A stretch of DNA of 64,000 nucleotides. It comes from a virus. Taxonomy: Duplodnaviria > Heunggongvirae > Uroviricota > Caudoviricetes. The stretch spans positions 1-64,000 of IMG/VR virus record IMGVR_UViG_3300046810_000041, one strand, 5' to 3'. The position numbers and the translations under genes are program-made. Position 1 is the stretch's first letter. Each line of letters starts with the position of its first letter. Below the pieces are notes generated by a model that saw nothing but the letters and a program-made list of their open reading frames with translations, made no database searches and was not told where the DNA came from. Positions 4,761 through 24,441 of this stretch are shown here, one piece after another.

Positions 4761-4777
4761 TGTTATGTGAGAATACA

Positions 4778-5482
4778 ATGAACAACTGGTTTAATGTGCT
4801 GAATCAAGCAGGTAATGTGACTCAGGCAGGTAAAGATTTCAACAAGCTTACGGTGGTCCCTGAAGGACATACTGTGCATATCTTTATTGATGGCAAGCGC
4901 AATACCATCCTCAAGAACCAAGACCAACTCGACGGCTGGCTCGAAGGTCAACAACGTAAATTTGCCTGGAAACCTGAAATGACTGAACAATTTGGACAAC
5001 ATACCATGACTGCAATCGCCCAACTGAATGGTATCGGTACTGACATCAACAATGCAATCAAAGGCCTGAGCAATGCGTTCGGCCCTGTGAGCAACTACAA
5101 TCCACCAAAAGAGCTGATTGGCACTCATGACCTGACGCGCGGTAATGTGGCCAAGATGTCTGACTTGACGGGTACTACCGAAGGGTTCGCAGATAACTAC
5201 GATGCTAAAGGTGGTGCAAGTCATTACAAGGACATTGTGCCGGGTATGCAGTACATGGAAATGATGCAGTACATGCTGGCAAAGTTCACTGGTGTTGAAG
5301 CACACCTGATGGGCCAGCTCTATAAGTATCTGATGCGTTGTGGTAACAAGGATGCCACTCTCCAGGAACTCACCAAGGTTCACTGGTATCTGGAATTCCT
5401 GATGGCATGGCACAAGAATGGTTGCAAGCCGTTCACTCACGAAGAGCAGCTGCGTCTGCTGGCCATGGAATCGGTTCTCTAA
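4778..5482 (+). CDS. Hypothetical protein (234 aa)
   Basis: ORF whose start carries the conserved context GAGAATACAATG. No motif recognised. Confidence 0.55.
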   Translation: MNNWFNVLNQAGNVTQAGKDFNKLTVVPEGHTVHIFIDGKRNTILKNQDQLDGWLEGQQRKFAWKPEMTEQFGQHTMTAIAQLNGIGTDINNAIKGLSNAFGPVSNYNPPKELIGTHDLTRGNVAKMSDLTGTTEGFADNYDAKGGASHYKDIVPGMQYMEMMQYMLAKFTGVEAHLMGQLYKYLMRCGNKDATLQELTKVHWYLEFLMAWHKNGCKPFTHEEQLRLLAMESVL

Positions 5483-5494
5483 GAAAGGCTAAGT

Positions 5495-7384
5495 ATGCCA
5501 CCACATCTGACAAAGAGACTTCTATTCGACATCGAAACTGATGGACTCCTCGTTACAGTAAGTGTAGCTCACATTGTGGGTTACCTGGACCTTGATACAA
5601 ACATCAAGAAAAGCTTCCGTGAAGGTGACGAAGGCTGGCGTGAAGACTTCGACCAGTGCAGACTGTTCGTAGGCCACAACATTATCGGTTATGACTTCCC
5701 GGCAATGTACAAAATCTTCAAGTGGCGTCCACACCCTGCAGCAAACATCCATGATACCATGCTGATGTCCCAAGCTCAGAACTATAGAAGGTTCATGAGC
5801 GGAACTCACAAGCTGGAAGATTGGGGTAATTTCCTGGGTTATCCTAAGGGTGATCATAGTGATTGGTCCAAGTGGACTCCTGATATGCAGATCTATTGGG
5901 AACGAGACATTGACCTGAACAAGAAAGTCTATGACTACTTGCTCGGTGAGTTCCGCGTTCTAATTGGTCGTAACATCTTCTTCAAGAAGTCTCTACAGAA
6001 CGAGCACATGGTTGCTAAGTTCTGTGCTAGAGCGCATGAAGTAGGCTGGCTCTTCGATAAGAAGTCTGGTCATGAGCTGCTGGCTGAAATGAAACAAGCT
6101 CTGCTGGACACGGAAGCAATCATTGTTCCGAAGCTGTTGGTAAAGACTGTAGCAATTGATAAAGTAAAAGGCGAGGTTGAGCCTAAGAAACCGAAGTGGC
6201 TGAAGAACGGCTGCTATGATATCCATACCTGCAAGTATTTCGGGATCACTCCTGAATCCGGTAAGGACGAAGATAATATGCTAGTGGTAGGTCCGTACTC
6301 TCGAATTGAGTTCGTAAATCCTACACTAAAGAATATGGAAGATGTGAAGACTTGGCTCTTCAGCATTGGTTGGGAACCTGACGACTGGAACCTCAAAAAG
6401 GAGCCAGATGGAACATGGCGTAAGGTTTCTCCGAAGCTGTCTGAGTCTTCGCTTCTGGCTTTAGGGCCGGATGGTGAATTGATTAACGACTACACGACTA
6501 CAAAATCTCGACATTCGATCCTGGAAGGCTGGCTGAGTTCCCTGGATGAGAATGATCGAATTCGTGGAGGTTGCTTCACCATTGCAACACCCACAGGTCG
6601 AGCACGGCACTCCGAGGTATGTAATGTACCCGGTGCAGAAGCTCCTTGGGGGAAACAGATCAGGTCGCTGTTCATCGCAGACCCTGGCTGGAAGATTGTT
6701 GGCGCTGACTCGTCTGGTAATCAGTTCCGAGCTTTGTGCCACTATCTGAAGAATGACAAATACACCGAGCTTGTGTTAACAGGTGATGTGCACCAAGAGA
6801 ATGCAAACGTTCTCACGGACATTCTTCAAGACATCGGTGTCTATAACTCCGAGCAGAAGGTGCCTCGTAAGACAGCTAAGCCTTTCATCTATGCATTCTT
6901 ATTTGGTGCAGGCGGTGAGAAGCTGTCGTTGATCGTGCTGGGTACACGTAACAAAAAGATTGGTAACAAGCTGAAGAATGAGTTCATTAAGCGAGTTCCT
7001 GGTCTGGAGCAACTGGTCGATAAAGTAACGAAGTTCTATTACAAGACCGAGCAGTATGGTAAGCCTTACATTCCAGGTGCGGATGGACGTAGGGTGTATT
7101 GTGACTCTCCGCATAAAGCACTGAACTATCTGCTTCAAGATTTTGAGGCTATTAGCTGTAAAGCAGCTGTGGCTTACATTATGGAGAAGTGTGAGAAGGA
7201 AGGTGTGCCATATATCCCACTCATCTGGTATCATGACGAATTTGAAATCATGGTTCCGGAAGAACACGCTGAGAAAGTCAGAGAGTGGAGTATCGAAGCC
7301 TACAGAGAATCAGGCAAGGAGTTTGGCATGATGATTCTGGATGGTGCAGGTAAAGTTGGTGATTCGTGGTATGATGTTCACTAA
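5495..7384 (+). CDS. Family A DNA polymerase with 3'-5' exonuclease domain
   Basis: Exo I motif DIETDGL and Exo II motif HNIIGYDFP. Pol motif A DSSGNQFR, motif B RKTAKPFIYAFLFG, motif C YHDEF. Confidence 0.9.
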   Translation: MPPHLTKRLLFDIETDGLLVTVSVAHIVGYLDLDTNIKKSFREGDEGWREDFDQCRLFVGHNIIGYDFPAMYKIFKWRPHPAANIHDTMLMSQAQNYRRFMSGTHKLEDWGNFLGYPKGDHSDWSKWTPDMQIYWERDIDLNKKVYDYLLGEFRVLIGRNIFFKKSLQNEHMVAKFCARAHEVGWLFDKKSGHELLAEMKQALLDTEAIIVPKLLVKTVAIDKVKGEVEPKKPKWLKNGCYDIHTCKYFGITPESGKDEDNMLVVGPYSRIEFVNPTLKNMEDVKTWLFSIGWEPDDWNLKKEPDGTWRKVSPKLSESSLLALGPDGELINDYTTTKSRHSILEGWLSSLDENDRIRGGCFTIATPTGRARHSEVCNVPGAEAPWGKQIRSLFIADPGWKIVGADSSGNQFRALCHYLKNDKYTELVLTGDVHQENANVLTDILQDIGVYNSEQKVPRKTAKPFIYAFLFGAGGEKLSLIVLGTRNKKIGNKLKNEFIKRVPGLEQLVDKVTKFYYKTEQYGKPYIPGADGRRVYCDSPHKALNYLLQDFEAISCKAAVAYIMEKCEKEGVPYIPLIWYHDEFEIMVPEEHAEKVREWSIEAYRESGKEFGMMILDGAGKVGDSWYDVH

Positions 7385-7389
7385 ATAAA

Positions 7390-7545
7390 ATGGATCCGGT
7401 AGAGTACCTCGAAAGCTTAATAAGCAACGTAACTAAGATGCCAGTTCAAAAGAACGAACTGGAGCTTCTCAAACGATTCATTGAACTGGATCGAGTACGC
7501 AAAGAGGCTGCTCTACTGGCCTCAATTGCACAAACAGGACTTTAG
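7390..7545 (+). CDS. Small hypothetical protein (51 aa)
   Basis: Short ORF immediately after the DNAP stop. Not in the track because it is under 60 aa. Confidence 0.25.
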   Translation: MDPVEYLESLISNVTKMPVQKNELELLKRFIELDRVRKEAALLASIAQTGL

Positions 7546-7550
7546 CATAC

Positions 7551-7739
7551 ATGAACATAAACTTGCTTAGTAAGAAAGCAAAGCTCATCAAACGAACTTA
7601 CAAAGAAGGTTATATCACTGCCCGAAATGGCGATGACTATGGATTTTCGGATGCATGGGAACGAAGTGGTGCCAAAATGGACCATGACGCGTTGTTGAAG
7701 AAGATCGCTAAGCTTAGCCTGAAACACCGTATCAAATAA
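7551..7739 (+). CDS. Hypothetical basic protein (62 aa)
   Basis: ORF in the co-directional string. Confidence 0.4.
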   Translation: MNINLLSKKAKLIKRTYKEGYITARNGDDYGFSDAWERSGAKMDHDALLKKIAKLSLKHRIK

Positions 7740-7774
7740 GTAGTAAAGCGGGTTGTGTAGAATTGCCCTCATGC

Positions 7775-7795
7775 CCAACCCGTTAAATTAACCCT
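7775..7795 (+). promoter_or_regulatory. Putative phage-RNAP promoter, exact 21-mer (copy 2)
   Basis: Exact CCAACCCGTTAAATTAACCCT, flanked by the inverted repeat gccctca/tgagggc. It lies upstream of the lipoprotein gene. Confidence 0.6.
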
Positions 7796-7845
7796 CTTGA
7801 GGGCTTGCAGTACAACATCAATACTAAACTAACTGAAAGTATACA

Positions 7846-8637
7846 ATGAAGAAATTTGCTCTGATGATTATGGTTGCCCTGTCGATGGCAGCATGCACTC
7901 GCGTTCCGACTGGTGAAGTTGGTCTCCGTGTTAACTGGGACAAGACCATCGAAGCGAAAGAGCTGGTTGCTGGTTCGGTCAATCAAACCATCATCGGTGA
8001 CGTCGAGAAATTCCCGATCAAGGAAATCTCGGCAGAAGTGAATGACCTGTCTCCTCTGGCGGCTGACAATAGCACGATGAAGGATTTCGACATCGCAGTT
8101 GTCTACAACCTGAACCCTTCTTCGGTATCCGAACTGTACACCAAGAAGAGTCATTCGTTCCATGCCACCGCAAGGGACACTGGCGATACGTTGCTGATGT
8201 ACTCGTATATCCAGCTGACTGCCCGCAATGCAGTCTTCAAGGAAGCACGAAAGTACGCAGCACTGGAAATGAATGACAAGCGTACTCAGATCGAATCCGA
8301 TATCCTGGCAACCATGAAAGCAACTCTGGCTGCAGAAGGTCTCGGTAACGATATCACCATCTCACAGATCCAGGTCAAGAGCATTGCGCCTTCGGATGCT
8401 GTGAAACAATCGGCTGATGCACTGGTTCGTTCCCAGAATGAACAGAAGCAAAAGCAGATCGAAGTGGGTACTGCGAAGCTGGAATCCGAGCGTATCGCTG
8501 CATTGAACGCCAATGCGGGTGCTATCGGTTACATGCAAGCACAAGCCCAGATGAAAATTGCCGAAGGTATCGCCAATGGCAAGGTTCAAACCGTTGTGGT
8601 GCCTTATGACTTCAAAGGCATGATCAGCGTGAAGTGA
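7846..8637 (+). CDS. SPFH/band-7-like lipoprotein
   Basis: Signal peptide with lipobox MIMVALSMAAC. The segment MKDFDIAVVYNLNP resembles the SPFH core, and a C-terminal coiled coil is typical of HflK/C-like proteins. Confidence 0.5.
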   Translation: MKKFALMIMVALSMAACTRVPTGEVGLRVNWDKTIEAKELVAGSVNQTIIGDVEKFPIKEISAEVNDLSPLAADNSTMKDFDIAVVYNLNPSSVSELYTKKSHSFHATARDTGDTLLMYSYIQLTARNAVFKEARKYAALEMNDKRTQIESDILATMKATLAAEGLGNDITISQIQVKSIAPSDAVKQSADALVRSQNEQKQKQIEVGTAKLESERIAALNANAGAIGYMQAQAQMKIAEGIANGKVQTVVVPYDFKGMISVK

Positions 8638-8783: not shown

Positions 8784-8788
8784 ACGAA

Positions 8789-9169: not shown

Positions 9170-9203
9170 TACAAACACTGTTCAATAACGTCGAGAGAAT
9201 ACA

Positions 9204-9392
9204 ATGCAACACAAGCAAAAAGCAGTTAGCGCAGTCGGTCAAGAAGCACTGGCACGTCGTCTGAAATCGCCGGGTCACCAGCCGTTCAATCTGGCCCCGA
9301 GCAAGATCAATCGTACGGGCAAGAAGAAAGGCGGCGATCGCACCGTCTATCCGAAGCGCGGCGATTACGCTGTCCAGGCGGTTGCGCAGTAA
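9204..9392 (+). CDS. Small basic protein (62 aa)
   Basis: ORF with the GAGAATACAATG start context. Confidence 0.4.
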   Translation: MQHKQKAVSAVGQEALARRLKSPGHQPFNLAPSKINRTGKKKGGDRTVYPKRGDYAVQAVAQ

Positions 9393-9403
9393 GCTGCAGT
9401 AAA

Positions 9404-9445
9404 GTAATACCAGGGTGGTCTCTAACAAGGGATCACCCTTATTAA
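9404..9445 (+). repeat. Conserved intergenic element GTAATACCAGG-hairpin (AGGGTGGTC...GATCACCCT)-TATTAAT (family copy 2)
   Basis: A 28-nt core agggtggtctctaacaagggatcaccct identical to 16949-16976. It forms a 9-bp stem with a 10-nt loop. Confidence 0.5.
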
Positions 9446-9468
9446 TCTAATCGTGGAATATAGCATAC

Positions 9469-9747
9469 ATGAAGACTCTCAAGAAAGGCGATATTGGTAT
9501 CGCTCAGTTCTTTGATAACTTTCCAGAATACAACGGTCAGGAATGTACTGTCCTGGATGGCCTGGAGTTCCGTGGTTTGATCATGGACGATATGACTACC
9601 CGCGAGAATGTTCTGCGGTATCGTGTACAGTTTCCTGATGGTCAAATCTTGGGGCCGCTCCCGCACCAGCTGCGTCCTCGCCCTGATCCGGATGAGAAGC
9701 ATGCAACGAACGACGAGCAGTACCTTCCAGATGCGGTGGCAGCATGA
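9469..9747 (+). CDS. Hypothetical protein (92 aa)
   Basis: ORF in the co-directional string. Confidence 0.4.
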   Translation: MKTLKKGDIGIAQFFDNFPEYNGQECTVLDGLEFRGLIMDDMTTRENVLRYRVQFPDGQILGPLPHQLRPRPDPDEKHATNDEQYLPDAVAA

Positions 9748-11012: not shown

Positions 11013-11645
11013 ATGCCTACAGCAGCAGAACTCAAGGCGATGATTAAAGTCATCAAGCCGAAAGTGGCCGAGGTAGAACCAGTAAAGAAGGTTCGAAAAG
11101 GCCGGGTTAGCAAGGACGTCAAAGAACTCAGCTTAAAGCATGAAGACGTCGAAAAGATTCCGAAGGCTAAACGTACCGTTACTCGGCGTAGCGATTACGA
11201 AGGCAACGGGCATTGGGCCTTTGATTCACCTATGGGCGGCAAGGGTAAGTTCGGTTTCATTTATGTGATTCACGATCTGATCAATGATAAGTACTATCTT
11301 GGAAAGAAACAATACCGAGGCACTGGCCAAGAGAATTTTGGAGTCGCTTCCAATTGGCCATGGTATACCTCCAGCCGGGATACCCTCGTAGAATTGATTA
11401 AGGCGCGTGGCAAAGAGCACTTTGAGTTCATTGTGCTTGAAGAGTACTCGTCGAATAAAGCATTGGGTTACGCAGAGACTTGGAGTCTTATGCGGGCAGA
11501 AACACCATCCAACCAAGGTAAATGGTATAACCGACTTGTGAACAAGGTGTCATGGTTCTGTTCAGAGGCAATCACGCAGCGACATAAAGACCGCCTAGAT
11601 GCGATCATCAAAGGTGAAGTGATTATTACTAAAGTGAATATATAA
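11013..11645 (+). CDS. GIY-YIG family endonuclease, possible homing endonuclease
   Basis: GFIYVIHDLINDKYYLGKK matches the GIY...YIG motif, followed by conserved R...H (ARGKEH) and E (LEEY). Free-standing between the FEN and primase genes. Confidence 0.55.
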   Translation: MPTAAELKAMIKVIKPKVAEVEPVKKVRKGRVSKDVKELSLKHEDVEKIPKAKRTVTRRSDYEGNGHWAFDSPMGGKGKFGFIYVIHDLINDKYYLGKKQYRGTGQENFGVASNWPWYTSSRDTLVELIKARGKEHFEFIVLEEYSSNKALGYAETWSLMRAETPSNQGKWYNRLVNKVSWFCSEAITQRHKDRLDAIIKGEVIITKVNI

Positions 11646-11889: not shown

Positions 11890-13602
11890 ATGGGTAAGAT
11901 CGTAAAGAAGAATCAGCCGTGTCTCGATGAAAGAAAGTGTGGTTCAAGCGATGCACGGCAAATTTATGAAGCAGGTGATTCATTTTGTTTCGCCTGTTCC
12001 AAAGCATTTCCCGCAGAAGAAGGTAGCATGGCCAAAGCAGATAATGACGATGATTTCGAAATTGAAGAAACGCAGAAGGTAAAGATGTCTGCAGATGGTA
12101 GCGAAGATCATAGCGAACAACTCGCTGAGATTGCTGAATACGTTACCCGTGGTTTCAAAGAACGTAACATCACAAAGACCGTAACTGAATTCTTTGGTGT
12201 TAAAGTCGGCCTCAAGCAAGATGGCAGTATCGATGCACATTACTACCCGTACGGTGATGTCGGTGCTGTTCAAGGATACAAAGTAAGAAAGCTCCCGAAG
12301 GTATTCAGCTATGTAGGCAAGGCTGGTGGCCTCTTCGGTCGCAGTAAGTTTGCTGGTGGTGGTAAGCGTATCATCATCACTGAAGGCGAAATCGATGCAA
12401 TGTCGTTTGCTCAGGCATACCAAGACAAGCATCAAAGGATTTATCCGGTGGTATCACTACCATCGGCTCAAGGTACTGCCCAGCTGATCGCTAACCGCGA
12501 TTGGCTTCGAACGTTTGATGAAGTCATTCTGGCTTTAGACAACGATGAAGTCGGCCAAGCAGCTACCGAGAAAGCAATGAAGATCATTGGCCTGGACAAG
12601 GTCAAGCTGGTCAACTTCGGTGACTACAAGGATGCTAATGAGCTGTTCTTGGCTGAAGGTGGCCAGGCTCTGCTTGTCAAGGTCTACGATGCTCAGATGC
12701 ACAAGCCAGCGGGTATTATGGACCGCAAGGCGATGCGTGAGCAGATGCATGCCAAGAACGAGACCAAGGCTGTACCCTATCCTGACTGCTTGAGGGAACT
12801 CAACGACAAGGTCAAAGGACGTCGCCGTGGTGAGATTGCACTGCATATCTCTGGTACTGGTTCTGGTAAGAGTACTGTTATCCGAGAAATCATCCTCGAT
12901 GATGTGGCTGTACTGGAACCTCATGAGAAGGTTGGTGTTATCTCCTTGGAAGAAACTCCAGGTGATACCGCACGTAACCTTGTCTGTATGCAGCTGAAGA
13001 AGAACCGGAACAAGGTTGAAATCTCTCGCGAAGAGATGGACAAAGGCTTTGACGAGGTATTCGGAACGGACAGTGACGATGAGCGTGTGATTGTTCTTGA
13101 TCACCAAGGCTCGATTAAGGATGCATCTATCCTTGATCAGATTATGTATATGATCCTGATGGGTTGTGTGCACATCTACATCGACCACTTGACCATCCTG
13201 GTTTCAGAAGGTGCTGAAGGTCTAACTGGTAACGAAGCGATCGACAAGATCATGAATGACATGCTGCGTATCGTCAAGAACGAGAACGTTCACATTGGCC
13301 TGGTCTCGCACCTCCGCAAGACTAAAGCAGGTGATAAGTCGTTCGAAGAAGGTTACATGGCAACGATGGACGATATCAAAGGCTCTGGCTCTATCAAGCA
13401 GGTCTGCCTGGATATCTTTGCTTATGCTCGTAACATGAATGCTGAAACGGCTGAAGAGCGTAACACCATCAAGAAAGCAGTGCTGAAATGCCGTGAGACT
13501 GGTGAGACTGGTCCTGTGGCTCCGTCGTACTACGATAGTATGACTGGTCGTCTGGGTAACTCGACCACGGTCAAGATGCCTGAAGAATTCGAGAAAATCT
13601 GA
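11890..13602 (+). CDS. Bifunctional primase-helicase (T7 gp4-like)
   Basis: N-terminal Zn-binding CxxxxxC-GSSD...CFAC as in T7 gp4. TOPRIM segment IIITEGEIDAMS and Walker A HISGTGSGKST of a DnaB-family helicase. Confidence 0.9.
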   Translation: MGKIVKKNQPCLDERKCGSSDARQIYEAGDSFCFACSKAFPAEEGSMAKADNDDDFEIEETQKVKMSADGSEDHSEQLAEIAEYVTRGFKERNITKTVTEFFGVKVGLKQDGSIDAHYYPYGDVGAVQGYKVRKLPKVFSYVGKAGGLFGRSKFAGGGKRIIITEGEIDAMSFAQAYQDKHQRIYPVVSLPSAQGTAQLIANRDWLRTFDEVILALDNDEVGQAATEKAMKIIGLDKVKLVNFGDYKDANELFLAEGGQALLVKVYDAQMHKPAGIMDRKAMREQMHAKNETKAVPYPDCLRELNDKVKGRRRGEIALHISGTGSGKSTVIREIILDDVAVLEPHEKVGVISLEETPGDTARNLVCMQLKKNRNKVEISREEMDKGFDEVFGTDSDDERVIVLDHQGSIKDASILDQIMYMILMGCVHIYIDHLTILVSEGAEGLTGNEAIDKIMNDMLRIVKNENVHIGLVSHLRKTKAGDKSFEEGYMATMDDIKGSGSIKQVCLDIFAYARNMNAETAEERNTIKKAVLKCRETGETGPVAPSYYDSMTGRLGNSTTVKMPEEFEKI

Positions 13603-13609
13603 GGATACA

Positions 13610-13864
13610 ATGCAACACTTTCTGATTAAACGTACTGACACGAAGATCATGCGATTTGCAGTTCGCATGGTGGAAGGTAAGACCAGGAATCACAGCACTC
13701 TGCTGGTGTTCACTAGCCGAGAAGAAGCTCAAGATTACATTGACGATGTGCTCACACCTGAAGCCACCTGGAAAGTTCATCCGGTGACTCTGCGTGGTGC
13801 ACAGGCAATCTTCAACAATATGCGTAATGCTGAATACAAGGCTCAACAAAATGCTCGATCGTAA
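13610..13864 (+). CDS. Hypothetical protein (84 aa)
   Basis: ORF with the GAGGATACAATG start context. Confidence 0.45.
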   Translation: MQHFLIKRTDTKIMRFAVRMVEGKTRNHSTLLVFTSREEAQDYIDDVLTPEATWKVHPVTLRGAQAIFNNMRNAEYKAQQNARS

Positions 13865-16940: not shown

Positions 16941-16981
16941 TGTAACACAGGGTGGTCTCTAACAAGGGATCACCCTTTTTA
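16941..16981 (+). terminator. Conserved element family copy 3: hairpin agggtggtc...gatcaccct followed by TTTTT
   Basis: The same 28-nt core as 9412-9439, here followed by a T5 run. Lies directly after the nrdA stop. Confidence 0.55.
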
Positions 16982-16995
16982 ATTGAGAGTATACA

Positions 16996-17340
16996 ATGTG
17001 GCAGTACGGTTGTGACAAGGATAAAGGAGAAAATTCATTTAGGGCCAATTATGAATATCATATTTGGGAAGGCAAGCGTTCTAACACTATATTCACCTGG
17101 TGCCAAAAGACACCAGCGAGTAAACGAAAGGTATGGGTAGAACAAATATTATTCTGGAGAGAAATCTTTGGTGATAGTATACCTGAGCCTGAATGTAAAG
17201 ATTTCACCTCAACCCGAGGAGCTGTGCACTATAAAGGTGTACATATTATCTCAACACCTCGTATTAGAAAGGACAGAGAAATTATTGCAGCGTACTTAGC
17301 TAAGCTTTTAAACTTGGCTGAGGACAAAGAGCATATGTGA
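16996..17340 (+). CDS. Hypothetical protein in a markedly AT-rich segment (114 aa)
   Basis: ORF whose base composition is visibly more AT-rich than its neighbours. Possible laterally acquired moron or endonuclease. No motif assigned. Confidence 0.4.
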   Translation: MWQYGCDKDKGENSFRANYEYHIWEGKRSNTIFTWCQKTPASKRKVWVEQILFWREIFGDSIPEPECKDFTSTRGAVHYKGVHIISTPRIRKDREIIAAYLAKLLNLAEDKEHM

Positions 17341-17356: not shown

Positions 17357-17523
17357 TGCCAAAGAAAGTCGAAGAAGCACTTTACAGGCAGGCTAAGAAG
17401 AAGGGCTTGAATGAAGAGGAAACTAAGCGATATGTATTTGGTACGATGAACAAGCGTGGCTTACTGAACAAAAGCGACAAGATCAAGTCCACAGAACGAT
17501 CTAGAAAATCTGATAAAAAGTAA
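17357..17523 (+). CDS. Small lysine-rich protein (55 aa)
   Basis: Short ORF MPKKVEEALYRQAKKKG... Confidence 0.3.
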
Positions 17524-17533
17524 ATAGGATAAA

Positions 17534-17920
17534 ATGAAACAAGTAATCTTTGTGTTTGGTTCGAACCTGGCTGGTCGTCATGGCAAGGGCGCTGCGGAAT
17601 ACGCCAAGAAACATTGCGGTGCTATTCCAGGGCAAGGAGAAGGACTTCAAGGCCAAAGCTATGCGATCCCTACTAAGGATGGTCGTAACGGTAAGTATCT
17701 TGGAGCTCCTTCCCAAACGCTCTCCTTGGCTCGAATCAGAACGCATGTCAATACCTTCATTGACTTCGCGATCAACAACCCACAAATGTTATTCCATGTA
17801 ACACCAATCGGTTGTGGTCTGGCAGGTTACAAACATGCTCAGATCGCACCACTGTTCTTGAATGCACCCGAGAACTGTTTGCTGCCGCCAGAATTCACGG
17901 CTATCTTGAATCAACAATAA
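17534..17920 (+). CDS. Hypothetical protein with Gly-rich N-terminus (FVFGSNLAGRHGKGAA)
   Basis: ORF. The Gly-rich loop suggests a nucleotide- or phosphate-binding fold, but the family is not recognised. Confidence 0.5.
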   Translation: MKQVIFVFGSNLAGRHGKGAAEYAKKHCGAIPGQGEGLQGQSYAIPTKDGRNGKYLGAPSQTLSLARIRTHVNTFIDFAINNPQMLFHVTPIGCGLAGYKHAQIAPLFLNAPENCLLPPEFTAILNQQ

Positions 17921-17930
17921 GAGGAATACA

Positions 17931-18227
17931 ATGCAATTCGGTCTCACATCGCAAGAGCGGGTAAAGAAGTATATCGTAGGTTGGTGGAAGTTCGCATGGC
18001 TGCCAACAAAGATGTCTGATGGTAGCTGGGTGTGGTTGCAAGAATTTTGGATGCATTATCCTGGAGCCTGGGATGCATACCGTAAGCACTTCTTCCTTTA
18101 CACCATTGGTGGATTTATGGGTGATGGTGAGATTTACCAAAAGAAGTTTGCTACACTGCCGTCTCCAGATTATATGTGCAAATACGCTAACATCACTGAA
18201 TTTGAACTCAAACCTGTCGAAATCTGA
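17931..18227 (+). CDS. Hypothetical protein (98 aa)
   Basis: ORF with the GAGGAATACAATG start context. Confidence 0.45.
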   Translation: MQFGLTSQERVKKYIVGWWKFAWLPTKMSDGSWVWLQEFWMHYPGAWDAYRKHFFLYTIGGFMGDGEIYQKKFATLPSPDYMCKYANITEFELKPVEI

Positions 18228-18235
18228 GAATACAA

Positions 18236-18777
18236 TGAACAAGCTTGAACACCTGAAATCCATCGCTTTCTCCCCGATCTACAACTATGCTGGTATTCCT
18301 GGGCTGACAAGTTCTCTGATCACTCCGGCAACTGAGCATGGTTTGATTCGTATGTTTCACTCGGAACGCGAGCATCACGAAGTACTGATCCCTCATTCGC
18401 ATCGCTATGACTTCCGTTGTGAAGTTCTGCAAGGTCAGGTCGATAACACGATCTGGTATGAGTATGATCGTGGTACTGAAATCGATATGTTCCGTATCAC
18501 CAAGCTGGAATATGGCAAAGAGCCTGGTGATTACAAGCGTGGTATCGAGCGTTATGCAATGATGCAATTCGAGACCAGTCACTACGGTGAAGGCGATACT
18601 TATTCGATGACCTCGAATGAGATTCATAGCATCAAATTCAGAAGAGATACTTATGTGCTCTTCTATGAAGGCCCTAAGGTCAGTGACACTTCAGTGATCA
18701 TTGAGCCTGTGGTTCGTGGTAAAGCAGTACCGACCTTTAAAGTGGAAGATTGGATGTTTGCAAAGGAGTGGAATTAA
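18236..18777 (+). CDS. Hypothetical protein with His cluster (IPHSHRYDF), possibly cupin-like
   Basis: ORF trimmed to the ATG at 18236, which has the GAGAATACAATG context and follows the upstream stop at 18227. Confidence 0.45.
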
Positions 18778-19053: not shown

Positions 19054-19139
19054 TCGTTAAAAGAGCGGTTATAAGGGTATCTTATATGAAGAATGTAAGA
19101 TATCCTTCAATCATTGTGTAGAATATACTGGAATAAATA

Positions 19140-20226: not shown

Positions 20227-20326
20227 GGCTAATATGAATGAATATCCTTTCATAGCTGCTATTTTAGTAGCATTCATAGCAGGAGTCCGTGTGGGCTACC
20301 TGTTGGCTAAATAATACAGGAATACA

Positions 20327-20620
20327 ATGAACAGTTTGGAAATGCTGTTGGCCCAAGGCGCTGAAGAAGGTAGCGAGTTTGCACAAGCATGTGTGAAGAT
20401 TCTTCGCTTCGGTCCTGATTCTACCTTTCAAGGTGAATCTAATCTCATGCAACTTCGCAAGGAGTTCATTGATGTGTTGGGCGTAGCAAGTCTGTTGCAA
20501 GATGAAGGCCTTCTGCCGAGGATGAATGACCCTGAAGTAGCATTCGGCGTTCAAGCTAAGCGCGAGAAGGTGAAACGTTACATGGATGTGTCCGAGCAGT
20601 TGGGCACCCTGCAGCGTTAA
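20327..20620 (+). CDS. Hypothetical protein (97 aa)
   Basis: ORF with the AGGAATACAATG start context. Confidence 0.45.
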   Translation: MNSLEMLLAQGAEEGSEFAQACVKILRFGPDSTFQGESNLMQLRKEFIDVLGVASLLQDEGLLPRMNDPEVAFGVQAKREKVKRYMDVSEQLGTLQR

Positions 20621-20657
20621 TAGTAGTACATTCAAATATACTGATAGAAAGCATACA

Positions 20658-21497
20658 ATGAACCACGCAATCGAAACCGCAAAACTGAATCAAGTCCTGG
20701 CAACCTTCTTCGGTGTTCCCGAGCACAAGTGGCTGGCAGGTCCTGAAGGTGTGTGGGTTGAGACTCTCAAGCAGGAAATGGCTGAACTCGGCCTGATGCT
20801 GGCAGGTGGCACCATCACCAGTATCTTCACTGGCAAGCACGTCAACGACCTGGACTTCTACATCAAGGACGAGCGTGACCTCAAGAAGGCTCAAGACTTC
20901 TTCCTGCGTGTGTTCCACAACGGGAAGGACATGCCGTATATCTCCCGTAATGCGGCTACCTACAAGCGCAAGTCGGACAAGTCGGCAAAGGTCTGGACGA
21001 TTCAGCTGATCAGCCGTTTCACTGGCAACCCATGGCAGATCATGGGCTGGTTCGATTTCACCATCACCCAAGGTGTGTATGACTTTGGTGCTCGTTGGGA
21101 AATCATCGATGAAAGGAAAGTATTCATCGGAGACTTCTTCTTTGGTGACCGTTTCTTCCAGGACATTGGTAAGCGCAAGCTGGTTTACCTGGGCTCCTCG
21201 AAATATCCGATCTGCGCAATGCATCGGACCAAGAAGTACATTGCCAGGGGTTATGATTGCCCTGGTAGCACTATCATGCACATCGCTCTGTCAATCGTGC
21301 AACTGAAGATCGAGAACTATGGGCAGCTGAAAGATCAGCTCATGGGCATCGATACTTCTTATCTCCAGAACCTGCTGGGTGAAGATCGTTACAACGATGC
21401 TCTCCCGGTTGACTATGGTACTTTCCTCCAGGAAGCTCTGGATTCGATCAACGGCTTCGCTTATGAAGATCACATCGAGGAAGATGGCTCACTGTAA
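20658..21497 (+). CDS. Nucleotidyltransferase-fold protein (Pol-beta superfamily)
   Basis: GGTITSIFTGKHVNDLDFYI fits the minimal nucleotidyltransferase signature G[GS]x(9-13)DhD. Start trimmed to the ATG with the CATACAATG context. Confidence 0.5.
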   Translation: MNHAIETAKLNQVLATFFGVPEHKWLAGPEGVWVETLKQEMAELGLMLAGGTITSIFTGKHVNDLDFYIKDERDLKKAQDFFLRVFHNGKDMPYISRNAATYKRKSDKSAKVWTIQLISRFTGNPWQIMGWFDFTITQGVYDFGARWEIIDERKVFIGDFFFGDRFFQDIGKRKLVYLGSSKYPICAMHRTKKYIARGYDCPGSTIMHIALSIVQLKIENYGQLKDQLMGIDTSYLQNLLGEDRYNDALPVDYGTFLQEALDSINGFAYEDHIEEDGSL

Positions 21498-21676
21498 TCA
21501 AGCAAGAGTCAAAGGTCGGGAGTTGTTTGACGATGTGGAGTTGCTTAATCTCTCCAATAAGTTTGCAACACCCGACGTTGAAGCACCATCAGCACACCGT
21601 ATTAAGATGACTAAACGGGATTTGGTGGCATACACACATGCAGTAATTGTAGAAACTTTAAATAGGATAAACCGAA

Positions 21677-22015
21677 ATGAGCAACCAAGCACAAGTACTC
21701 AAGATTCAAGCAGCAGACCGCACCAAGACCTTTCATTCCCGCGTGGAAGCGAAACGTCGCAGCAACGAGGACATCATTCAGGAGTTGATGCAACACTCCA
21801 AGTTTGGTGGACTGGCTCAAGCGTTCGTGATGGCAGGTCTGCGGGTGTATGCAGAATCGATCGCCTCGACGGAGCGTCCGGAAGCACAGCCGAATGCAGT
21901 AATCGATCCGGCTTTGTGGCACGACATCGCGACCGACACTTTCGAGCGTTTGGAAATGATGTATAAGCAGAACAATGAAGTAGTTGTATCGAGCATCATC
22001 GATCTGGCGGCCTAA
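21677..22015 (+). CDS. Hypothetical protein (112 aa)
   Basis: ORF with the ATAAACCGAAATG start context. Confidence 0.5.
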   Translation: MSNQAQVLKIQAADRTKTFHSRVEAKRRSNEDIIQELMQHSKFGGLAQAFVMAGLRVYAESIASTERPEAQPNAVIDPALWHDIATDTFERLEMMYKQNNEVVVSSIIDLAA

Positions 22016-22083
22016 GTCAGACGATTGCAGTAAGTGGCCTAATAAGCCCACATTCTAATATTACACCAAGAGGAATATTTATC

Positions 22084-22395: not shown

Positions 22396-22460
22396 TAGTA
22401 GAAGTAGCCCGGAGCCTCAAAACTCCGGGTTTCACCATGTAATCTTAACTCCACGTTATA

Positions 22461-23297
22461 ATGAAAAATAAACCGCTCGTGATTTACCATGCAAGTTGCC
22501 TCGATGGTTTTGGTGCTGCATTCGCATTCTGGAAGGTGTTCGGCAAGAACGCTGATTATCATCCGGGTGTGTATGGAGACCCTTGCCCCGATGTAACTGA
22601 TCGTGATGTTTATATGTTAGACTTCGGCTACAAGCGTAATGTGGTTGAAGGCATGGTTAAGTTTGCCAAGAGTGTAACGCTGATCGATCACCATGTGACA
22701 ACGATTAATGCTCTGGCAGACGTTGATGGTATCGACCGCTATACCGATATTCATCAATCGGGTGCTGTTTTGGCCTGGAAGTACGCACAAGATGTTCTGT
22801 TCCTGGATGCTGAGATTCCGCAACTGATCAAGCATATTCAGGATCGTGACCTCTGGAATTTCGAATTACCTTTTACGAAGGAAGTTATCGCTGGTTTGTC
22901 CAGTTATGATTTCAACTTCATGGATTGGGATTCGATCATCTACGAAGTGGGTAATGAATTCCTGATCCAGGAAGGCAACACTATTCTCCGCTACCACAAG
23001 AAGAATCTGTTGCAAGTACTCGAAGAATGCACTCGCGAAATGTTCATCGTGGGTGAGCCTGTACCCTGCGCCTCTGTGCCATATTTCATGGCCTCAGATG
23101 CAGGTGAAATTCTGAATAAAGGCAAACCGTTCTCTGCAACGTATTATGACACCGACAAGCATCGTGTGTTCAGTCTTCGTTCTGAGAAAGGTAAGGGTTG
23201 GGATGTGTCTGCAGTTGCTGCTCAATACGGCGGCGGTGGTCACAAGCATGCAGCAGGGTTCATGGTAACCCGTCAGCATCACCTGGCTAAAGTCTAA
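22461..23297 (+). CDS. DHH-family phosphoesterase (NrnA/RecJ-like core)
   Basis: The four DHH-family motifs are present: YHASCLDGFGAA, LDFGY, LIDHH and YGGGGHKHAAG (GGGH). Confidence 0.7.
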   Translation: MKNKPLVIYHASCLDGFGAAFAFWKVFGKNADYHPGVYGDPCPDVTDRDVYMLDFGYKRNVVEGMVKFAKSVTLIDHHVTTINALADVDGIDRYTDIHQSGAVLAWKYAQDVLFLDAEIPQLIKHIQDRDLWNFELPFTKEVIAGLSSYDFNFMDWDSIIYEVGNEFLIQEGNTILRYHKKNLLQVLEECTREMFIVGEPVPCASVPYFMASDAGEILNKGKPFSATYYDTDKHRVFSLRSEKGKGWDVSAVAAQYGGGGHKHAAGFMVTRQHHLAKV

Positions 23298-23310
23298 GTA
23301 GTTTCTTGGT

Positions 23311-23360
23311 GCGCTCCTTAATCGGGGCGCTTGGTGGTGTCTTCGGATGCCACCCTTTTT
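23311..23360 (+). terminator. Two tandem hairpins (gcgctcc-TTAATC-ggggcgc, then ggtggtgtc-UUCG-gatgccacc) followed by TTTTT
   Basis: Inverted repeats read directly. The second has a UUCG tetraloop and a T5 run. Lies directly after the DHH gene. Confidence 0.5.
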
Positions 23361-23387
23361 ATTCGTCAATTGTTAGGATACATTATG

Positions 23388-23606
23388 AGCACTACCAAAG
23401 AAGTCAAGTCGAAATCCCTGGGTGAACTGCAAGAAGCCTCCATCAAGGCAACTCTCCTGTTCCGCAAGGCTCAAGAAGACTTTGTCAAAGCGCAGGAAAA
23501 CCTCAAGGTCCGCCAGAACCAGCATGTTACGGCTATTCTTCAATTGAATGATGAATTCGCCAAGGTTCGCCGCGAGTGCGAGGTTGCCCCGCTGGGCAGT
23601 CTGTGA
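23388..23606 (+). CDS. Hypothetical protein (72 aa)
   Basis: ORF trimmed to the ATG that follows the terminator. Confidence 0.4.
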   Translation, partial: STTKEVKSKSLGELQEASIKATLLFRKAQEDFVKAQENLKVRQNQHVTAILQLNDEFAKVRRECEVAPLGSL

Positions 23607-23732
23607 GCCTGTGATGGGTTTCACCGACCTGTTCTTCCCGCGTGTCACCACGGACCAACCTGGTAGGCAGGTGACGGTGCGTGTGCTCAAGTCCCGGTCT
23701 GAGTTCAGCAGTCCGTACGGTCTGGTTCTCCG

Positions 23733-23753
23733 CCAACCCGTTAAATTAACCCT
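23733..23753 (+). promoter_or_regulatory. Putative phage-RNAP promoter, exact 21-mer (copy 3, tandem pair)
   Basis: Exact CCAACCCGTTAAATTAACCCT followed by GAAAGGGAACGA. It is the first of two copies 64 bp apart. Confidence 0.6.
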
Positions 23754-23796
23754 GAAAGGGAACGACGAGGAAGGTCAGCTGCGGTCTACCGCCAAT

Positions 23797-23817
23797 CCAA
23801 CCCGTTAAATTAACCCT
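23797..23817 (+). promoter_or_regulatory. Putative phage-RNAP promoter, exact 21-mer (copy 4, tandem pair)
   Basis: Exact 21-mer with the same downstream GAAAGGGAACGA. It is the second unit of a roughly 64-bp tandem duplication upstream of the gene at 24004. Confidence 0.6.
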
Positions 23818-24003
23818 GAAAGGGAACGAGGAAGTTCGGCTGGCTTGCTGTCTCCAGGACGCTATGTCTTTTGGACTTCCTCACCTGAACACGCTTTAAC
23901 CTATACTCCGTAAAACTGCGGGTTTATAGGCATCTTATATGAAGAAGGCTCATAAGAGTTGACTTCGAATTCCATTACTTTTAAATTGAAACGAGAATAC
24001 ATC

Positions 24004-24441
24004 ATGACGAACGCAACCGAAAACCAGATCATCGACAACGCAGAAGCAACCGCACCGACCGTCGCCAAGAAGAAAGGCGCTGTCGCCCTGCTGAAGAAGC
24101 GCGCACTGTTCGAAGCTCCGGATGGCACCATCTTCGAAACCCAGAAGGAAGCCACCGAGTACCTGCGCCGCCACCTGAAAGTGGATGCTGTCAATGCTGT
24201 CGCTGCACTGTTCACGGGCGTCGATGCTGAAGGCAACGAGCAGACTCTGGGCCAATTCCTGCTGTCGAACGAAGATGCAATCCGCAAGGCATACGATGCT
24301 GCCAAAGTGGAACGCGCTCCGGTCACGGAAGAAACCAAGGCCAAGATGCGTGCTGCACGCGCCAAGCTGAAAGGTGAAGTCGCTCCGGCAGACCAAACCC
24401 CGGCTGATGCAGAAACCCAAGGCGATGCTCAAGCTGAGTAA
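24004..24441 (+). CDS. Hypothetical acidic/Ala-Lys-rich protein (145 aa)
   Basis: ORF trimmed to the ATG with the GAGAATACATCATG context. Confidence 0.5.
   Translation: MTNATENQIIDNAEATAPTVAKKKGAVALLKKRALFEAPDGTIFETQKEATEYLRRHLKVDAVNAVAALFTGVDAEGNEQTLGQFLLSNEDAIRKAYDAAKVERAPVTEETKAKMRAARAKLKGEVAPADQTPADAETQGDAQAE

Follow-up and report, generated by a model that had tools for sequence, protein, structure and literature searches.

A repeated sequence at early and middle gene starts

Why should 13 genes that are unrelated to one another all begin behind nearly the same short sequence? The window analysed here is a 64,000-nt stretch of an uncultured, siphovirus-like phage whose transcription and replication genes are of T7 type. 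In it, RRG-N-ATACA (GAGAAUACAAUG in RNA form) stands, nearly identical, directly 5' of the ATG of 13 early/replication genes. The + strand has 14 occurrences of ATACA followed by 0 or 2 nt and ATG and the - strand has none, with ~2.5 expected, and 13 of the 14 lie exactly at gene starts. For AGAATACAATG with at most one mismatch there are 11 matches, all on the + strand; 100 dinucleotide shuffles gave 1.3 +/- 1.2, and none of the 100 reached 11. Exact ATACAATG is found 11 times on + and not on - (Markov-1 expectation 1.3, P ~1e-7), and exact GAGAATACA five times on + and not on -, every copy 0-2 nt 5' of an ORF-opening ATG. The fourteenth ATACA copy, CGAATACAATG (31329..31339, +), is within a tRNA-Trp (31310 to 31392 or 31395; an ARAGORN call around the ATG at 31337, with 51 bits in Rfam) and is not a gene start; its ATACAATG is the approximately one copy that chance predicts.

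The gene-start copies span positions 430 to 24004, the left arm, where they precede 13 of 40 genes as against none of the 36 later genes (Fisher p = 9e-5). The original prediction of a distinct, over-represented context abutting early and middle ATGs, and missing from late genes, thus holds. The ten starts that it listed all carry the motif, with two corrections of position: the ATG listed at 18236 belongs at 18235, and the GAGAATACA before 24004 does not abut the ATG, from which it is separated by 2 nt (TC). Three further sites, 430, 4097 and 23385, are added here. The motif is a discrete repeat of 9-12 nt, with no copy decaying away from the ATGs. Just upstream of the window, in an identical assembly, there are two clear and two looser copies; AGGAGAAATACA-ATG and GGAGAATAC-ATG there have fuller Shine-Dalgarno (SD) sequences on the same spacer.

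The leftmost copy in the window, TGGATACA-ATG (421..432; this and all following copies are on the + strand), opens the gene for a T7-like single-subunit RNA polymerase (430-2706). A gp2.5-like SSB gene (4097-4705) has GAGAATACA-CC-ATG (4086..4099), with a 2-nt spacer, and a DUF3310/nucleotide-kinase-like gene (4778-5482) has GAGAATACA-ATG (4769..4780), 16 nt 3' of a hairpin at 4731-4753. AAGTATACA-ATG (7837..7848) begins an SPFH/Band-7 lipoprotein gene (7846-8637), and GAGAATACA-ATG (9195..9206) a 62-aa gene (9204-9392) with orthologues in two relatives (L123, L124). At the 84-aa gene 13610-13864, GAGGATACA-ATG (13601..13612) overlaps the TGA that ends the primase/helicase gene. There follow GAGTATACA-ATG (16987..16998), 10 nt 3' of a terminator-like hairpin (16949-16976), on a 114-aa gene (16996-17340); AGGAATACA-ATG (17922..17933) on a 98-aa gene (17931-18227); and GAGAATACA-ATG (18226..18237) on a 180-aa gene (18235-18777), overlapping the TGA stop of the gene upstream. 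AGGAATACA-ATG recurs (20318..20329) at a MazG-like NTP pyrophosphohydrolase gene (20327-20620), and AAGCATACA-ATG (20649..20660) opens a 279-aa gene (20658-21497). The last two copies have 2-nt spacers: AGGATACA-TT-ATG (23374..23387), directly 3' of a terminator hairpin (GGTGGTGTCTTCGGATGCCACC with a T-run), at a 73-aa gene (23385-23606), and GAGAATACA-TC-ATG (23993..24006) at a 145-aa gene (24004-24441), the last before a large terminator region. Degenerate relatives of the motif are found at a 62-aa gene (7551-7739; TTAGCATAC-ATG, 7542..7553) and, 3' of one copy of a repeated hairpin (9411-9446), at a 92-aa gene (9469-9747; ATAGCATAC-ATG, 9460..9471).

The adjoining ATGs as start codons

Do these genes really start where the motif stands? 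Independent gene calls on a 100% identical assembly (L126) chose the same motif starts, including that of the RNA polymerase gene at 430. Orthologues in relatives start at the same residue as the motif genes. For example, the start MKQK of the RNA polymerase is conserved, orthologues of the MazG-like protein start at the same residue, and so does the orthologue of 20658 in L111, where the start is preceded by AGAAAGTAACAAACA. Homology of the products extends to the N-terminus. The concern that the true starts lie elsewhere therefore finds no support in the gene calls or the orthologue N-termini, and the motif-adjoining ATGs are, on this comparative evidence, true start codons. Motif genes also have a larger gap to the upstream stop (median 47 vs 7.5 nt, p = 0.04). 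The repeat would be the region for translation initiation on those genes of the early/replication arm that are initiated independently.

A probable weak ribosome-binding site with an invariant spacer

How might a ribosome read these starts? From 5' to 3', the motif comprises an RRG core at -9 to -7 (GAG, AGG, GGA or AAG), the place of the SD core in other genes; a free position -6, which carries no information; an invariant, A-rich AUACA; and then, after 0 or 2 nt, the AUG. Of 14 aligned sites, 13 have G at -7. The duplex energy with the 16S 3' tail does not differ from that of late genes (p = 0.9), anti-SD pairing is better than at internal ATGs (p = 0.009), and SD enrichment is seen in all gene classes of the genome. 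That the motif has no canonical GGAGG, as originally remarked, is literally so, but an SD-like purine triplet stands at the normal distance from the ATG and pairs with the anti-SD as late genes do, and the description as a non-SD context is not supported. The second context, AAGGAAAT or TAAGGAT before 43387, 46484, 46756, 47821, 56702 and 25958, is as first described but is not confined to structural genes. Typical of it are the ordinary SD context of the major capsid gene (AAAGGAAACACAAT-ATG, 43373..43389, +), whose orthologues in relatives retain AAGGAA/AAGGAT, and the ordinary strong SD of the tape measure gene (TAAGGAGGCTTGAT-ATG, 47806..47823, +). AGGA/AAGGA-type contexts also precede the middle genes 11013, 14235, 17534 and 21677, so this class is not specific to structural genes. 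The two start contexts differ by spacer identity, not by SD dependence, and the motif very probably works as a weak ribosome-binding site whose spacer is unusually constant. Ordinary genomes conserve the SD and let the spacer vary; in this phage it is the spacer that stays fixed, while the SD triplet differs between copies.

The context had been read as a sign of a host whose ribosomes ignore the SD, for example one of the Bacteroidota. The lack of GGAGG would fit, as would A at -3 (10 of the 10 ATG-abutting copies) and often at -6 (5 of 10), resembling the Kozak-like A-3/A-6 context described in Bacteroidota and E. coli (Baez et al. 2019, PMC6847099). The motif shares with that context A at -3 and a low pairing propensity around the start. 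However, the Kozak-like context is a single-position statistical preference in SD-poor genomes, whereas here there is a discrete repeat in an SD-using genome, and the A-rich tract at -11 to -14 was not found at motif sites. Complementarity to the anti-SD is enriched at starts genome-wide, with the motif class equal to late genes, and strong SDs exist (AGGAGGTG before 3689 and 27984; AAGGAGG before 47821). Moreover, relatives that share the promoters lack the motif, distant cultured cousins of the relatives infect Alphaproteobacteria, and one relative was binned with a Beijerinckiaceae MAG. The host is probably a proteobacterium, and an SD-ignoring host is scarcely credible.

A separate candidate promoter

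Could the repeat act in transcription or RNA processing instead? It might be a promoter for the phage or host RNA polymerase, a transcript 5' end, or a processing site giving leaderless or near-leaderless mRNAs. Like T7/T3-type promoters, it is short, conserved, on the transcribed strand only and repeated 5' of genes in a phage that encodes a polymerase, and single-subunit RNA polymerases can use short promoters. TACAAT is similar to a -10 hexamer. In one version, a MazF-type ACA-specific endoribonuclease would cut just 5' of the AUG; ACA does lie directly 5' of AUG, and the phage has a gene for a MazG-like protein, but no MazF-like gene was seen among the scanned proteins. A much better promoter candidate is the 21-mer CCAACCCGTTAAATTAACCCT, which has six intergenic copies with 50-200-nt leaders and is common, exactly, to >117 related contigs. 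This 21-mer is the candidate phage promoter; the start motif is not. The first gene after each of the three left-arm promoter sites is a motif gene: SSB at 4097 after the copy at 3922, SPFH/Band-7 at 7846 after that at 7775, and 24004 after tandem copies at 23733 and 23797. A sigma-70-type scan showed no promoter excess and no promoter coinciding with motif sites, and a -10 at TACAAT would put the transcription start within the gene. Unlike T7/T3-type promoters, the motif has no conserved sequence further 5' (7-mers are common to at most 2 of 13 upstream regions), stands against the ATG and, at 13610 and 18235, overlaps the stop codon of the closely packed gene before it. Conserved purines at -9 to -7 and the tolerated 2-nt shift suit ribosome binding rather than a fixed transcription start. 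A promoter or 5'-end role is thus very unlikely.

Origin of the repeat

When did the repeat arise? The full motif is carried by one genome only, as two identical assemblies. Relatives without it, at 50-75% protein identity, have AAGGA/GGAG/AGAAAG start contexts with a variable spacer. Among the 12 motif genes tested for homologues (23385 was recognised only later), 7 have homologues in relatives and 5 are lineage-specific accessory genes. The motif is absent at the five orthologous starts readable in relatives (RNA polymerase, SSB, 4778, 20327 and 20658), so it arose within this phage's lineage. When k-mers before ATG were scanned in 120 related loci, the window's ATACA ranked first, and the other top k-mers inspected were not at gene starts. 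Looser versions, GAGGAATAC-ATG and GAATAC-ATG, are found in the nearest relative, L001.

One possible origin is that initiation regions were copied through recombination at short homologies during the gain and reshuffling of gene cassettes, leaving an identity that was never selected. Several pairs of sites look alike beyond the motif: TGAGAATACAATGAACAA is identical at 4767 and 18224, AAATCTGAG[G/A]ATACAATG is found at 13610 and 18235, and TA[A/T]ACT[A/G]A..GAAAG[T/C]ATACAATGAA at 7846 and 20658. Other initiation-region "families" exist as well, for example TAAATAGGATAAA (twice) and the pair 25417/25935. Homology between the window and L001 ends precisely at the junction that follows the primase gene, and the five accessory genes would suit such gains. 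However, the seven other motif genes tested are ancestral, and the different context at their five readable orthologous starts implies that the initiation region changed in place. The upstream regions offer no flanking homology to drive gene conversion, and every copy is still perfectly placed on its ATG. Unselected copying is therefore improbable as the source of the identity.

What reads the spacer?

The purine triplet very probably serves the ribosome as a weak SD, with the spacer A's at -1, -3, -5 and usually -6 favouring initiation. What, then, holds the spacer constant? It may be that the ribosome is the sole reader, and that the motif is simply this lineage's preferred ribosome-binding site of moderate strength: a weak SD followed by a G-free, unstructured, A-rich spacer, its copies fixed by ordinary selection for genes that initiate efficiently on their own. 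The SD-like triplet is correctly spaced and pairs as well as that of other genes, the motif region is less structured than other starts (0.62 vs 0.52 unpaired, p = 0.007), and in E. coli and F. johnsoniae A at -3/-6 promotes initiation (PMC6847099). The very efficient T7 gene 10 site (GGAGATATACAT-ATG) is similar. In its canonical SD context (AAGGAGATATACAT-ATG), as here, a purine core at about -7 to -11 is followed by a G-poor, A/U-rich spacer, and that spacer contains ATACA. Such favourable A-rich spacers, together with the T7 gene 10 site, make a purely cis explanation viable, and the looser versions in L001 are consistent with it. On the other hand, many A/U-rich spacers should do equally well, and the same genome does use others (GGATAAA, GGATATAAA and GGAAATAAA), so identity at five positions on 13 genes is unexpected if the ribosome alone is the reader. 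T7, with 50 genes, has no repeated spacer and only one ATACA(N0-2)ATG. The motif is missing from the late genes with the highest expression (capsid, tail), and from relatives that have the same promoters and hence, probably, similar hosts. We consider the ribosome as sole reader possible but doubtful.

We tentatively prefer, while giving it somewhat less than an even chance, that the repeat is an mRNA-level start-associated sequence on early/middle mRNAs that is read by a specific factor too. Five spacer bases that cannot pair with 16S rRNA and are nevertheless the same on 13 unrelated genes point to such a reader, and sequence-specific recognition of AUACA is our preferred reason for the invariance, with similarly guarded confidence. 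The likeliest reader would be an RNA-binding protein or endoribonuclease encoded by the phage or, less likely, by the host, which would handle early/middle mRNAs as a single post-transcriptional class. Its effect could be a timed shut-off or boost of their translation, as with T4 RegA and RegB, whose targets are the initiation regions of early mRNAs (Uzan and Miller 2010, PMC3014915). The parallel is one of function alone: class-wide post-transcriptional control at early/middle initiation regions. RegA sites are unstructured, A+U-rich and overlap or abut the AUG, and RegB cuts in the SD of early but not late mRNAs (PMC3014915). However, RegA operators are far more degenerate than the motif (SELEX consensus AAAAUUGUUAUGUAA), and RegB requires GGAG, which most motif copies lack. 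Neither RegA nor RegB, nor any other recognisable domain for RNA binding or RNase activity, was detected in the 30 early/middle proteins scanned against Pfam, 10 of them also against PHROGs, and many small ORFs are unannotated; the lack of a regulator candidate in these scans favours the ribosome as sole reader.

The closest analogue, by comparison of arrangement, is the Start-Associated Sequence (SAS) of Cluster K mycobacteriophages (Pope et al. 2011, PMC3203893; 2025 survey, PMC12699233). The sequences differ (GGGATAGGAGCCC vs RRG-N-ATACA), as do the settings: the SAS host is an actinobacterium and its phage temperate, whereas here the host is probably a proteobacterium and the phage siphovirus-like. 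The core of the SAS is a strong AGGAG, and the SAS lies 3-7 nt from the start, whereas here the core has 3 nt and the motif abuts the ATG (0 or 2 nt). About half of SAS have 17-bp inverted repeats (ESAS), with none comparable upstream of the motif, and the SAS is conserved in most subclusters, whereas the motif is absent from relatives. Nevertheless, the SAS is a short asymmetric repeat with 11-19 copies per genome, compared with 13 in the window plus the upstream copies here. Both occur in a single orientation a few nucleotides from start codons, mostly ATG, only in the non-structural half of the genome and on genes from unrelated families. Both lie at the ribosome-binding site and join an SD core to conserved positions that are unable to pair with 16S rRNA.

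A conserved motif at the start codons of left-arm genes

In this phage the start codons of 13 left-arm genes (430–24004) are directly preceded by a shared motif, RRG-N-ATACA. With up to one mismatch, AGAATACAATG has 11 matches, all on the + strand, where 1.3 are expected, and none of 100 shuffles reached 11. Exact ATACAATG likewise occurs 11 times on the + strand and 0 times on the − strand (Markov expectation 1.3, P about 1e-7). Allowing a 2-nt gap adds three copies, giving 14 occurrences of ATACA(N0,2)ATG on the + strand of the window and 0 on the − strand. Exact GAGAATACA is found five times on the + strand and not on the − strand, each time 0–2 nt upstream of an ATG that opens an ORF. In all, 13 of the 14 copies sit at gene starts, 0 or 2 nt before the ATG, and the remaining one, with its ATG at 31337, lies inside a genuine tRNA gene and equals the single copy expected by chance. 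The original prediction listed ten motif starts, and the motif is present at every one. Its coordinates hold with two corrections: the start placed at 18236 is at 18235, and at 24004 the motif sits 2 nt off the ATG rather than abutting it. Three motif starts had been overlooked, at 430 (RNA polymerase), 4097 (SSB) and 23385.

The ATGs next to the motif are the true starts, because three kinds of evidence agree. First, L126, an independently assembled Logan contig (run SRR26076577) found via the RNA polymerase, is 100% identical to the window over 12.7 kb, and its gene calls, made by the collection's own caller, pick identical starts at 430, 4097, 4778, 7846 and 9204, as well as at the degenerate sites 7551 and 9469. 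Second, the RNA polymerase, the SSB, 20327 and 20658 share their starting residue with their orthologues in related contigs. Third, profile matches of the motif-gene products extend to their N-termini. In annotating this genome, the motif can be relied on to mark start codons. L126 also reaches 9.6 kb upstream of the window, where it adds two clear copies (AGGAGAAATACA-ATG and GAGGATACAAC-ATG) and two looser ones, among them GGAGAATAC-ATG.

Distribution along the genome

All confident genes of the window lie on the + strand. By PHROG and Pfam matches they include a T7-like single-subunit RNA polymerase (430–2706), a gp2.5-like SSB (4097), a family-A DNA polymerase (5495), a 5'-3' exonuclease (9896), a SegE-like GIY-YIG endonuclease (11013), a primase/helicase (11890), ribonucleotide reductase (14235 and 15219), a ligase (19291) and a MazG-like protein (20327), followed further along by the portal (35953), a 1639-aa head protein (37700–42619), the major capsid protein (43387) and a 2916-aa tape measure (47821–56571). 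An ORF at 34294 in the terminase region, unannotated here, has homologues in 14 related loci. With this gene content and nine or ten tRNAs, the window is that of an uncultured phage, siphovirus-like and equipped with a T7-type module for transcription and replication. The window takes in ~80% of the genome, given a source JGI contig of 78,554 bp.

The motif is found on 13 of the 40 genes up to 24004 and on 0 of the 36 later genes (Fisher p = 9e-5), which bears out the claim of a distinct start context specific to early and middle genes. The boundary matches a non-coding region of 474 nt (24442–24915) ending in a long hairpin and a T-run. Motif genes are those that need to initiate on their own. 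A median of 47 nt separates them from the upstream stop codon, versus 7.5 nt for the rest of the left-arm genes (p = 0.04). At each of the three promoter sites of this arm, the first gene downstream bears the motif (4097, 7846 and 24004), and the motif genes 4778, 16996 and 23385 lie directly past terminator-like hairpins.

Several hairpins punctuate this layout. The region at 24442–24915, which marks the end of the motif-bearing arm, and another at 28820–29356 (537 nt) each have a long perfect hairpin followed by 13–15 T; both are probably strong terminators that split the genome into transcription blocks. A 36-nt hairpin with T-run, CAGGGTGGTCTCTAACAAGGGATCACCCTT(A/T)TTAAT, occurs twice with 97% identity (9411–9446 and 16948–16983), both copies just upstream of a gene with an ATAC(A)-ATG-type start context.

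Relation to the Shine-Dalgarno sequence

When the sites are aligned on ATACA, which is identical at all 13 sites, G occupies −7 in 13 of 14 and purines occupy −8 and −9, so that the Shine-Dalgarno (SD) triplet varies (GAG, AGG, GGA, AAG). Position −6 carries zero information and positions upstream of −10 essentially none (~0.1–0.7 bit). The purine triplet sits where the other genes of this genome have their SD core. Computed with a generic 16S 3' tail, which may differ from the host's, the mean duplex energy of the motif class comes to −4.65 kcal/mol, versus −5.10 kcal/mol for late genes (p = 0.9) and −3.47 kcal/mol for internal ATGs (p = 0.009), and in all gene classes of the window anti-SD pairing is above that of internal ATGs. 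The motif is therefore not SD-free: it couples a minimal SD to an invariant spacer. With GAG aligned on the CUC of the generic anti-SD, which again may not match the host's 16S, ATACA has no complementarity to the adjoining bases in a check by hand. The two AAG variants fall within GAAAG/AGAAAG, which complements the CUUUCU with which non-enteric 16S rRNA typically ends; the same sequence recurs in relatives and, as AGAAAGG, upstream of the DNA polymerase gene. Motif starts are predicted to be less structured than other starts (0.62 vs 0.52 unpaired, p = 0.007).

As in a canonical SD region, a purine stretch lies ~5–10 nt before the start, but the spacer, non-conserved in such a region, is conserved here. 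T7 shows the opposite arrangement: its SD is conserved and its spacers vary, whereas here the spacer is fixed and the SD triplet varies. In T7, ATACA(N0-2)ATG is found at one of 50 genes, the gene 10 site GGAGATATACAT-ATG.

It had been proposed that the start context is real and class-specific, as it proves to be, and that it may point to an SD-independent host such as a member of the Bacteroidota. The latter reading is hardly credible. On the start-context features of Bacteroidota-type initiation the picture is mixed: each of the ten motif copies directly next to the ATG has A at −3 and five have A at −6, and no A-rich tract is seen at −11..−14. Anti-SD pairing is raised in every gene class, the motif itself contains an SD, and explicit SD sites, AGGAGGTG and AAGGAGG, occur in the window. 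The absence of GGAGG should not count as evidence of an SD-independent host. The second context that was described, AAAGGAAA, AAGGAT or AAGGAGG, is present as reported; these are ordinary SDs, and the one at the capsid gene is kept across relatives. Its supposed restriction to structural genes does not stand, since it is also found on 11013, 14235, 17534 and 21677. The contrast between middle and structural genes is therefore true for ATACA and not for AAGGA.

Across this genome, initiation regions tend to group into small families. The region TAAATAGGATAAA occurs twice (17521–17546 and 21659–21684), and two 34-nt stretches that are 76% identical (25417–25450 and 25935–25968) span the starts of the adjacent genes 25440 and 25958, whose products both begin MEHK.

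Promoters

Could the motif act in transcription instead? A promoter, an RNA-processing site or a leaderless mRNA 5' end are very improbable explanations. The better candidate for the phage promoter is a distinct 21-mer, CCAACCCGTTAAATTAACCCT, which has six copies, all on the + strand and all intergenic. Written as CCAACCCGTTA(A/G)ATTAACCC(T/A), it lies at 3922–3942, 7775–7795, 23733–23753, 23797–23817, 29172–29192 and 31285–31305. Its exact 18-mer core occurs in >117 IMG/VR contigs of related phages, which share ~65–70% nucleotide identity with the window in the RNA polymerase, DNA polymerase, capsid and head-protein genes; for relatives this distant, the core is unusually strictly conserved. 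The 21-mer is likely to be the promoter of the phage's single-subunit RNA polymerase. The motif has ~9–12 conserved nt, against the ~20 bp of a promoter for such a polymerase, and abuts the ATG. Two motif copies overlap an upstream stop codon. As for host sigma-70 promoters, a consensus scan was at background, with no match coinciding with motif sites, and if GAGAAT or TACAAT were a −10 element, transcription would start inside genes.

Other candidate signals were seen in the window. The 21-mer copies at 3922 and 29172 have a further 67-nt leader in common (73% identity). Extended −10-like elements, TGTGTTATAAT and, twice, TGTGTAGAAT, come after a run of ~25 T, and the small genes 190 and 19140 are each preceded by a repeat, TAGAATATACTG; these elements and the repeat (103–128 and 150–180; 7755–7768; 19105–19125) are possible host-polymerase promoters for the earliest genes. 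GTAGTA(C) occurs in intergenic positions right after stop codons or before hairpins (42, 136, 7740, 20623, 27151 and 46717), with two copies within the first 150 nt; as a second signal it is only weakly enriched (25 on the + strand vs 15 on the − strand).

Relatives and the origin of the motif

The motif is not a family-wide feature. Over 1.06 Mb of relatives that share the promoter, ATACAATG is not enriched, with 33 copies on the promoter strand vs 29 on the opposite one. A scan of every 5-mer before ATG in 120 loci ranked the window's ATACA first and found no equivalent motif at gene starts elsewhere; the other top matches inspected were out-of-frame coding patterns or tandem repeats. In searches for close relatives, an IMG/VR scan with TGAGAATACAATGAACAA returned only two unrelated chance matches, and a metagenome scan with the primase gave no match. 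Orthologous starts in the related contigs L123 (compared over an 18-kb syntenic stretch of its 76.6 kb), L124, L125 and others lack the motif; they carry ordinary AAGGA, GGAG or AGAAAG, and their spacers vary. The nearest fragment, L001, with an 83% identical primase, is the only relative with looser versions: GAGGAATAC-ATG, GAATAC-ATG and AGGAGGCTACA-ATG.

The motif evolved recently in this lineage. Homologues in relatives were found for 7 of the 12 motif genes tested (RNA polymerase, SSB, 4778, 9204, 20327, 20658 and 24004), and the other 5 of 12 are lineage-specific. With ancestral genes carrying the motif here and not in relatives, the sequences argue that it was installed in place on unrelated genes within the lineage, by convergence and not by shared gene descent. 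A different route would be the spread of whole initiation regions by copy and paste. A few extended identities, such as an 18-mer common to 4778 and 18235, favour this route, which is nonetheless improbable.

Mechanism

The motif is very probably an mRNA-level translation-initiation module of independently initiated early and middle genes, with RRG as a weak SD. Specifically, the RRG triplet would act as a weak SD for the ribosome, and the A-rich spacer (A at −1, −3, −5 and often −6) would favour initiation. A Kozak-like effect of A on initiation has been measured in E. coli and F. johnsoniae (PMC6847099).

What might hold the spacer constant? Our preferred answer, a sequence-specific reader that treats motif mRNAs as one class, falls a little short of an even chance. 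Such a reader would be a phage-encoded RNA-binding protein or endoribonuclease, acting on early mRNAs in the manner of RegA or RegB. Alternatively, the spacer may work in cis only, as a lineage-specific optimum read by the ribosome alone, a plausible explanation that we do not favour. Bearing on spacer identity, the same genome uses other A/U-rich spacers elsewhere, ATACA is not used by the most highly expressed late genes, and relatives do without it. In the early and middle proteins scanned with Pfam and PHROGs, a scan that leaves small ORFs without annotation, there are no RegA-, RegB- or MazF-like domains or other RNA-binding or RNase domains. Nor is there a sign of a phage-encoded antisense or sRNA partner: non-coding regions hold no GU-tolerant complement, the best duplexes lie inside coding genes, and an Rfam search found tRNAs and no other known RNA family. 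The orthologous genes in relatives lack the motif, so comparison with relatives could identify a reader.

In its most specific form, the reader model would make GAGAAUACA(AUG) the operator of a lineage-specific, previously unrecognised post-transcriptional regulon on at least 13 early and replication mRNAs; this is rather doubtful, and we offer it tentatively. A phage RNA-binding protein or endoribonuclease, probably an unannotated small early protein, would recognise the invariant spacer in the motif-bearing RNA (UGAGAAUACAAUGAAC), and translation of motif mRNAs would be switched on or off as a block. If true, this would be the first start-associated sequence in a phage of a Gram-negative host, and it would mean that such elements can arise de novo in one lineage, with many initiation regions converging through point changes.

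Comparison with known systems

To our knowledge, conserved sequences that abut start codons and are not accounted for by rRNA pairing have not been described outside Cluster K mycobacteriophages. The Start-Associated Sequence (SAS) of those phages is a 13-bp asymmetric repeat with 11–19 copies in one orientation, 3–7 bp from mostly ATG starts, confined to the non-structural half of the genome; it combines an SD core with conserved bases unable to pair with rRNA, and its reader has gone unexplained since 2011 (PMC3203893). As of 2025, its function was still without a test (PMC12699233). The window motif shares every one of these architectural features: it is a short asymmetric repeat with 14 copies in one orientation in the window, lies 0 or 2 nt before the ATG of a gene in 13 of them, is limited to the non-structural part of the genome, and has an SD core plus conserved positions without 16S rRNA pairing. 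However, it is not a member of the SAS family. RRG-N-ATACA differs from the consensus GGGATAGGAGCCC by more than two mismatches, and it abuts the ATG, whereas SAS lies 3–7 bp away. SAS is conserved across the cluster in the same gene families; the window motif is not conserved among relatives. A subset of SAS, the ESAS, has 17-bp inverted repeats immediately upstream, which the window motif lacks: there are no ESAS-like upstream repeats, and no 7-mer is common to more than 2 of the 13 upstream regions. The window motif is an independent second example in an unrelated phage, siphovirus-like with a T7-type RNA polymerase, DNA polymerase and primase, which suggests that phages may have turned to class-specific initiation signals repeatedly.

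Phage T4 offers a second parallel. T4 RegA acts as a repressor at the initiation regions of ~30 early mRNAs, and RegB cleaves the SD of early mRNAs and spares that of late ones (PMC3014915). Like the targets of these proteins, the motif lies in unstructured A+U-rich initiation regions of early and middle but not late mRNAs; unlike in T4, no RegA or RegB homologue was found with Pfam and PHROGs among the early and middle proteins scanned.

Other features of the phage

No near DNA match to the window was found among cultured phages. The closest cultured phages by protein, at 34–54% identity, are Roseobacter CRP-7, Ruegeria DSS3_VP1/PM1, Pelagibacter Kolga and EBPR siphovirus 1, and the closest DNA polymerases are at most 74% identical. 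The host is probably a proteobacterium. The sole host hint found is a relative's 5.7-kb contig, L128 (JBIPLL010000628.1), which encodes a major capsid protein of 62% identity and was assigned to a Beijerinckiaceae MAG from Lake Mendota; this binning is either a weak hint of an alphaproteobacterial host or a mis-binned phage fragment.

For the DNA polymerase (P0001, 5495–7384), the Logan call and orthologues back a start at ATG 5495, behind AGAAAGGCTAAGT; the JGI call of 602 aa begins at GTG 5576, 27 codons downstream. Homing-endonuclease genes lie inside the replication and transcription module (window 11013–11645; L123 1283–1804): a SegE-like GIY-YIG gene precedes the primase in the window and in L123, where an additional NUMOD4 gene adjoins a shortened RNA polymerase call. 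The tRNA cluster (31193–33348) has 9–10 genes by ARAGORN and Rfam, which disagree at one gene, Rfam alone calling 32137–32208 and ARAGORN alone a tRNA-Tyr at 32262–32354. Its tRNA-Trp (31310–31395) is atypical, at 86 nt with a 3-bp D stem and a long variable arm, and starts ~5 nt past a promoter copy.

The 1639-aa protein (37700–42619), conserved in ~50 related loci, has an SPP1 gp7-like head-morphogenesis domain at its N-terminus, and its residues 1145–1248 match phage RNA polymerase profiles (phrog_414, E = 4e-20). It may be a second, virion-packaged RNA polymerase beside the T7-like one in a siphovirus-like phage. The tape measure (47821–56571), at 2916 aa, is among the longest known and, by the usual rule of 0.15 nm of tail length per residue, implies a very long tail of roughly 0.4 micrometre.
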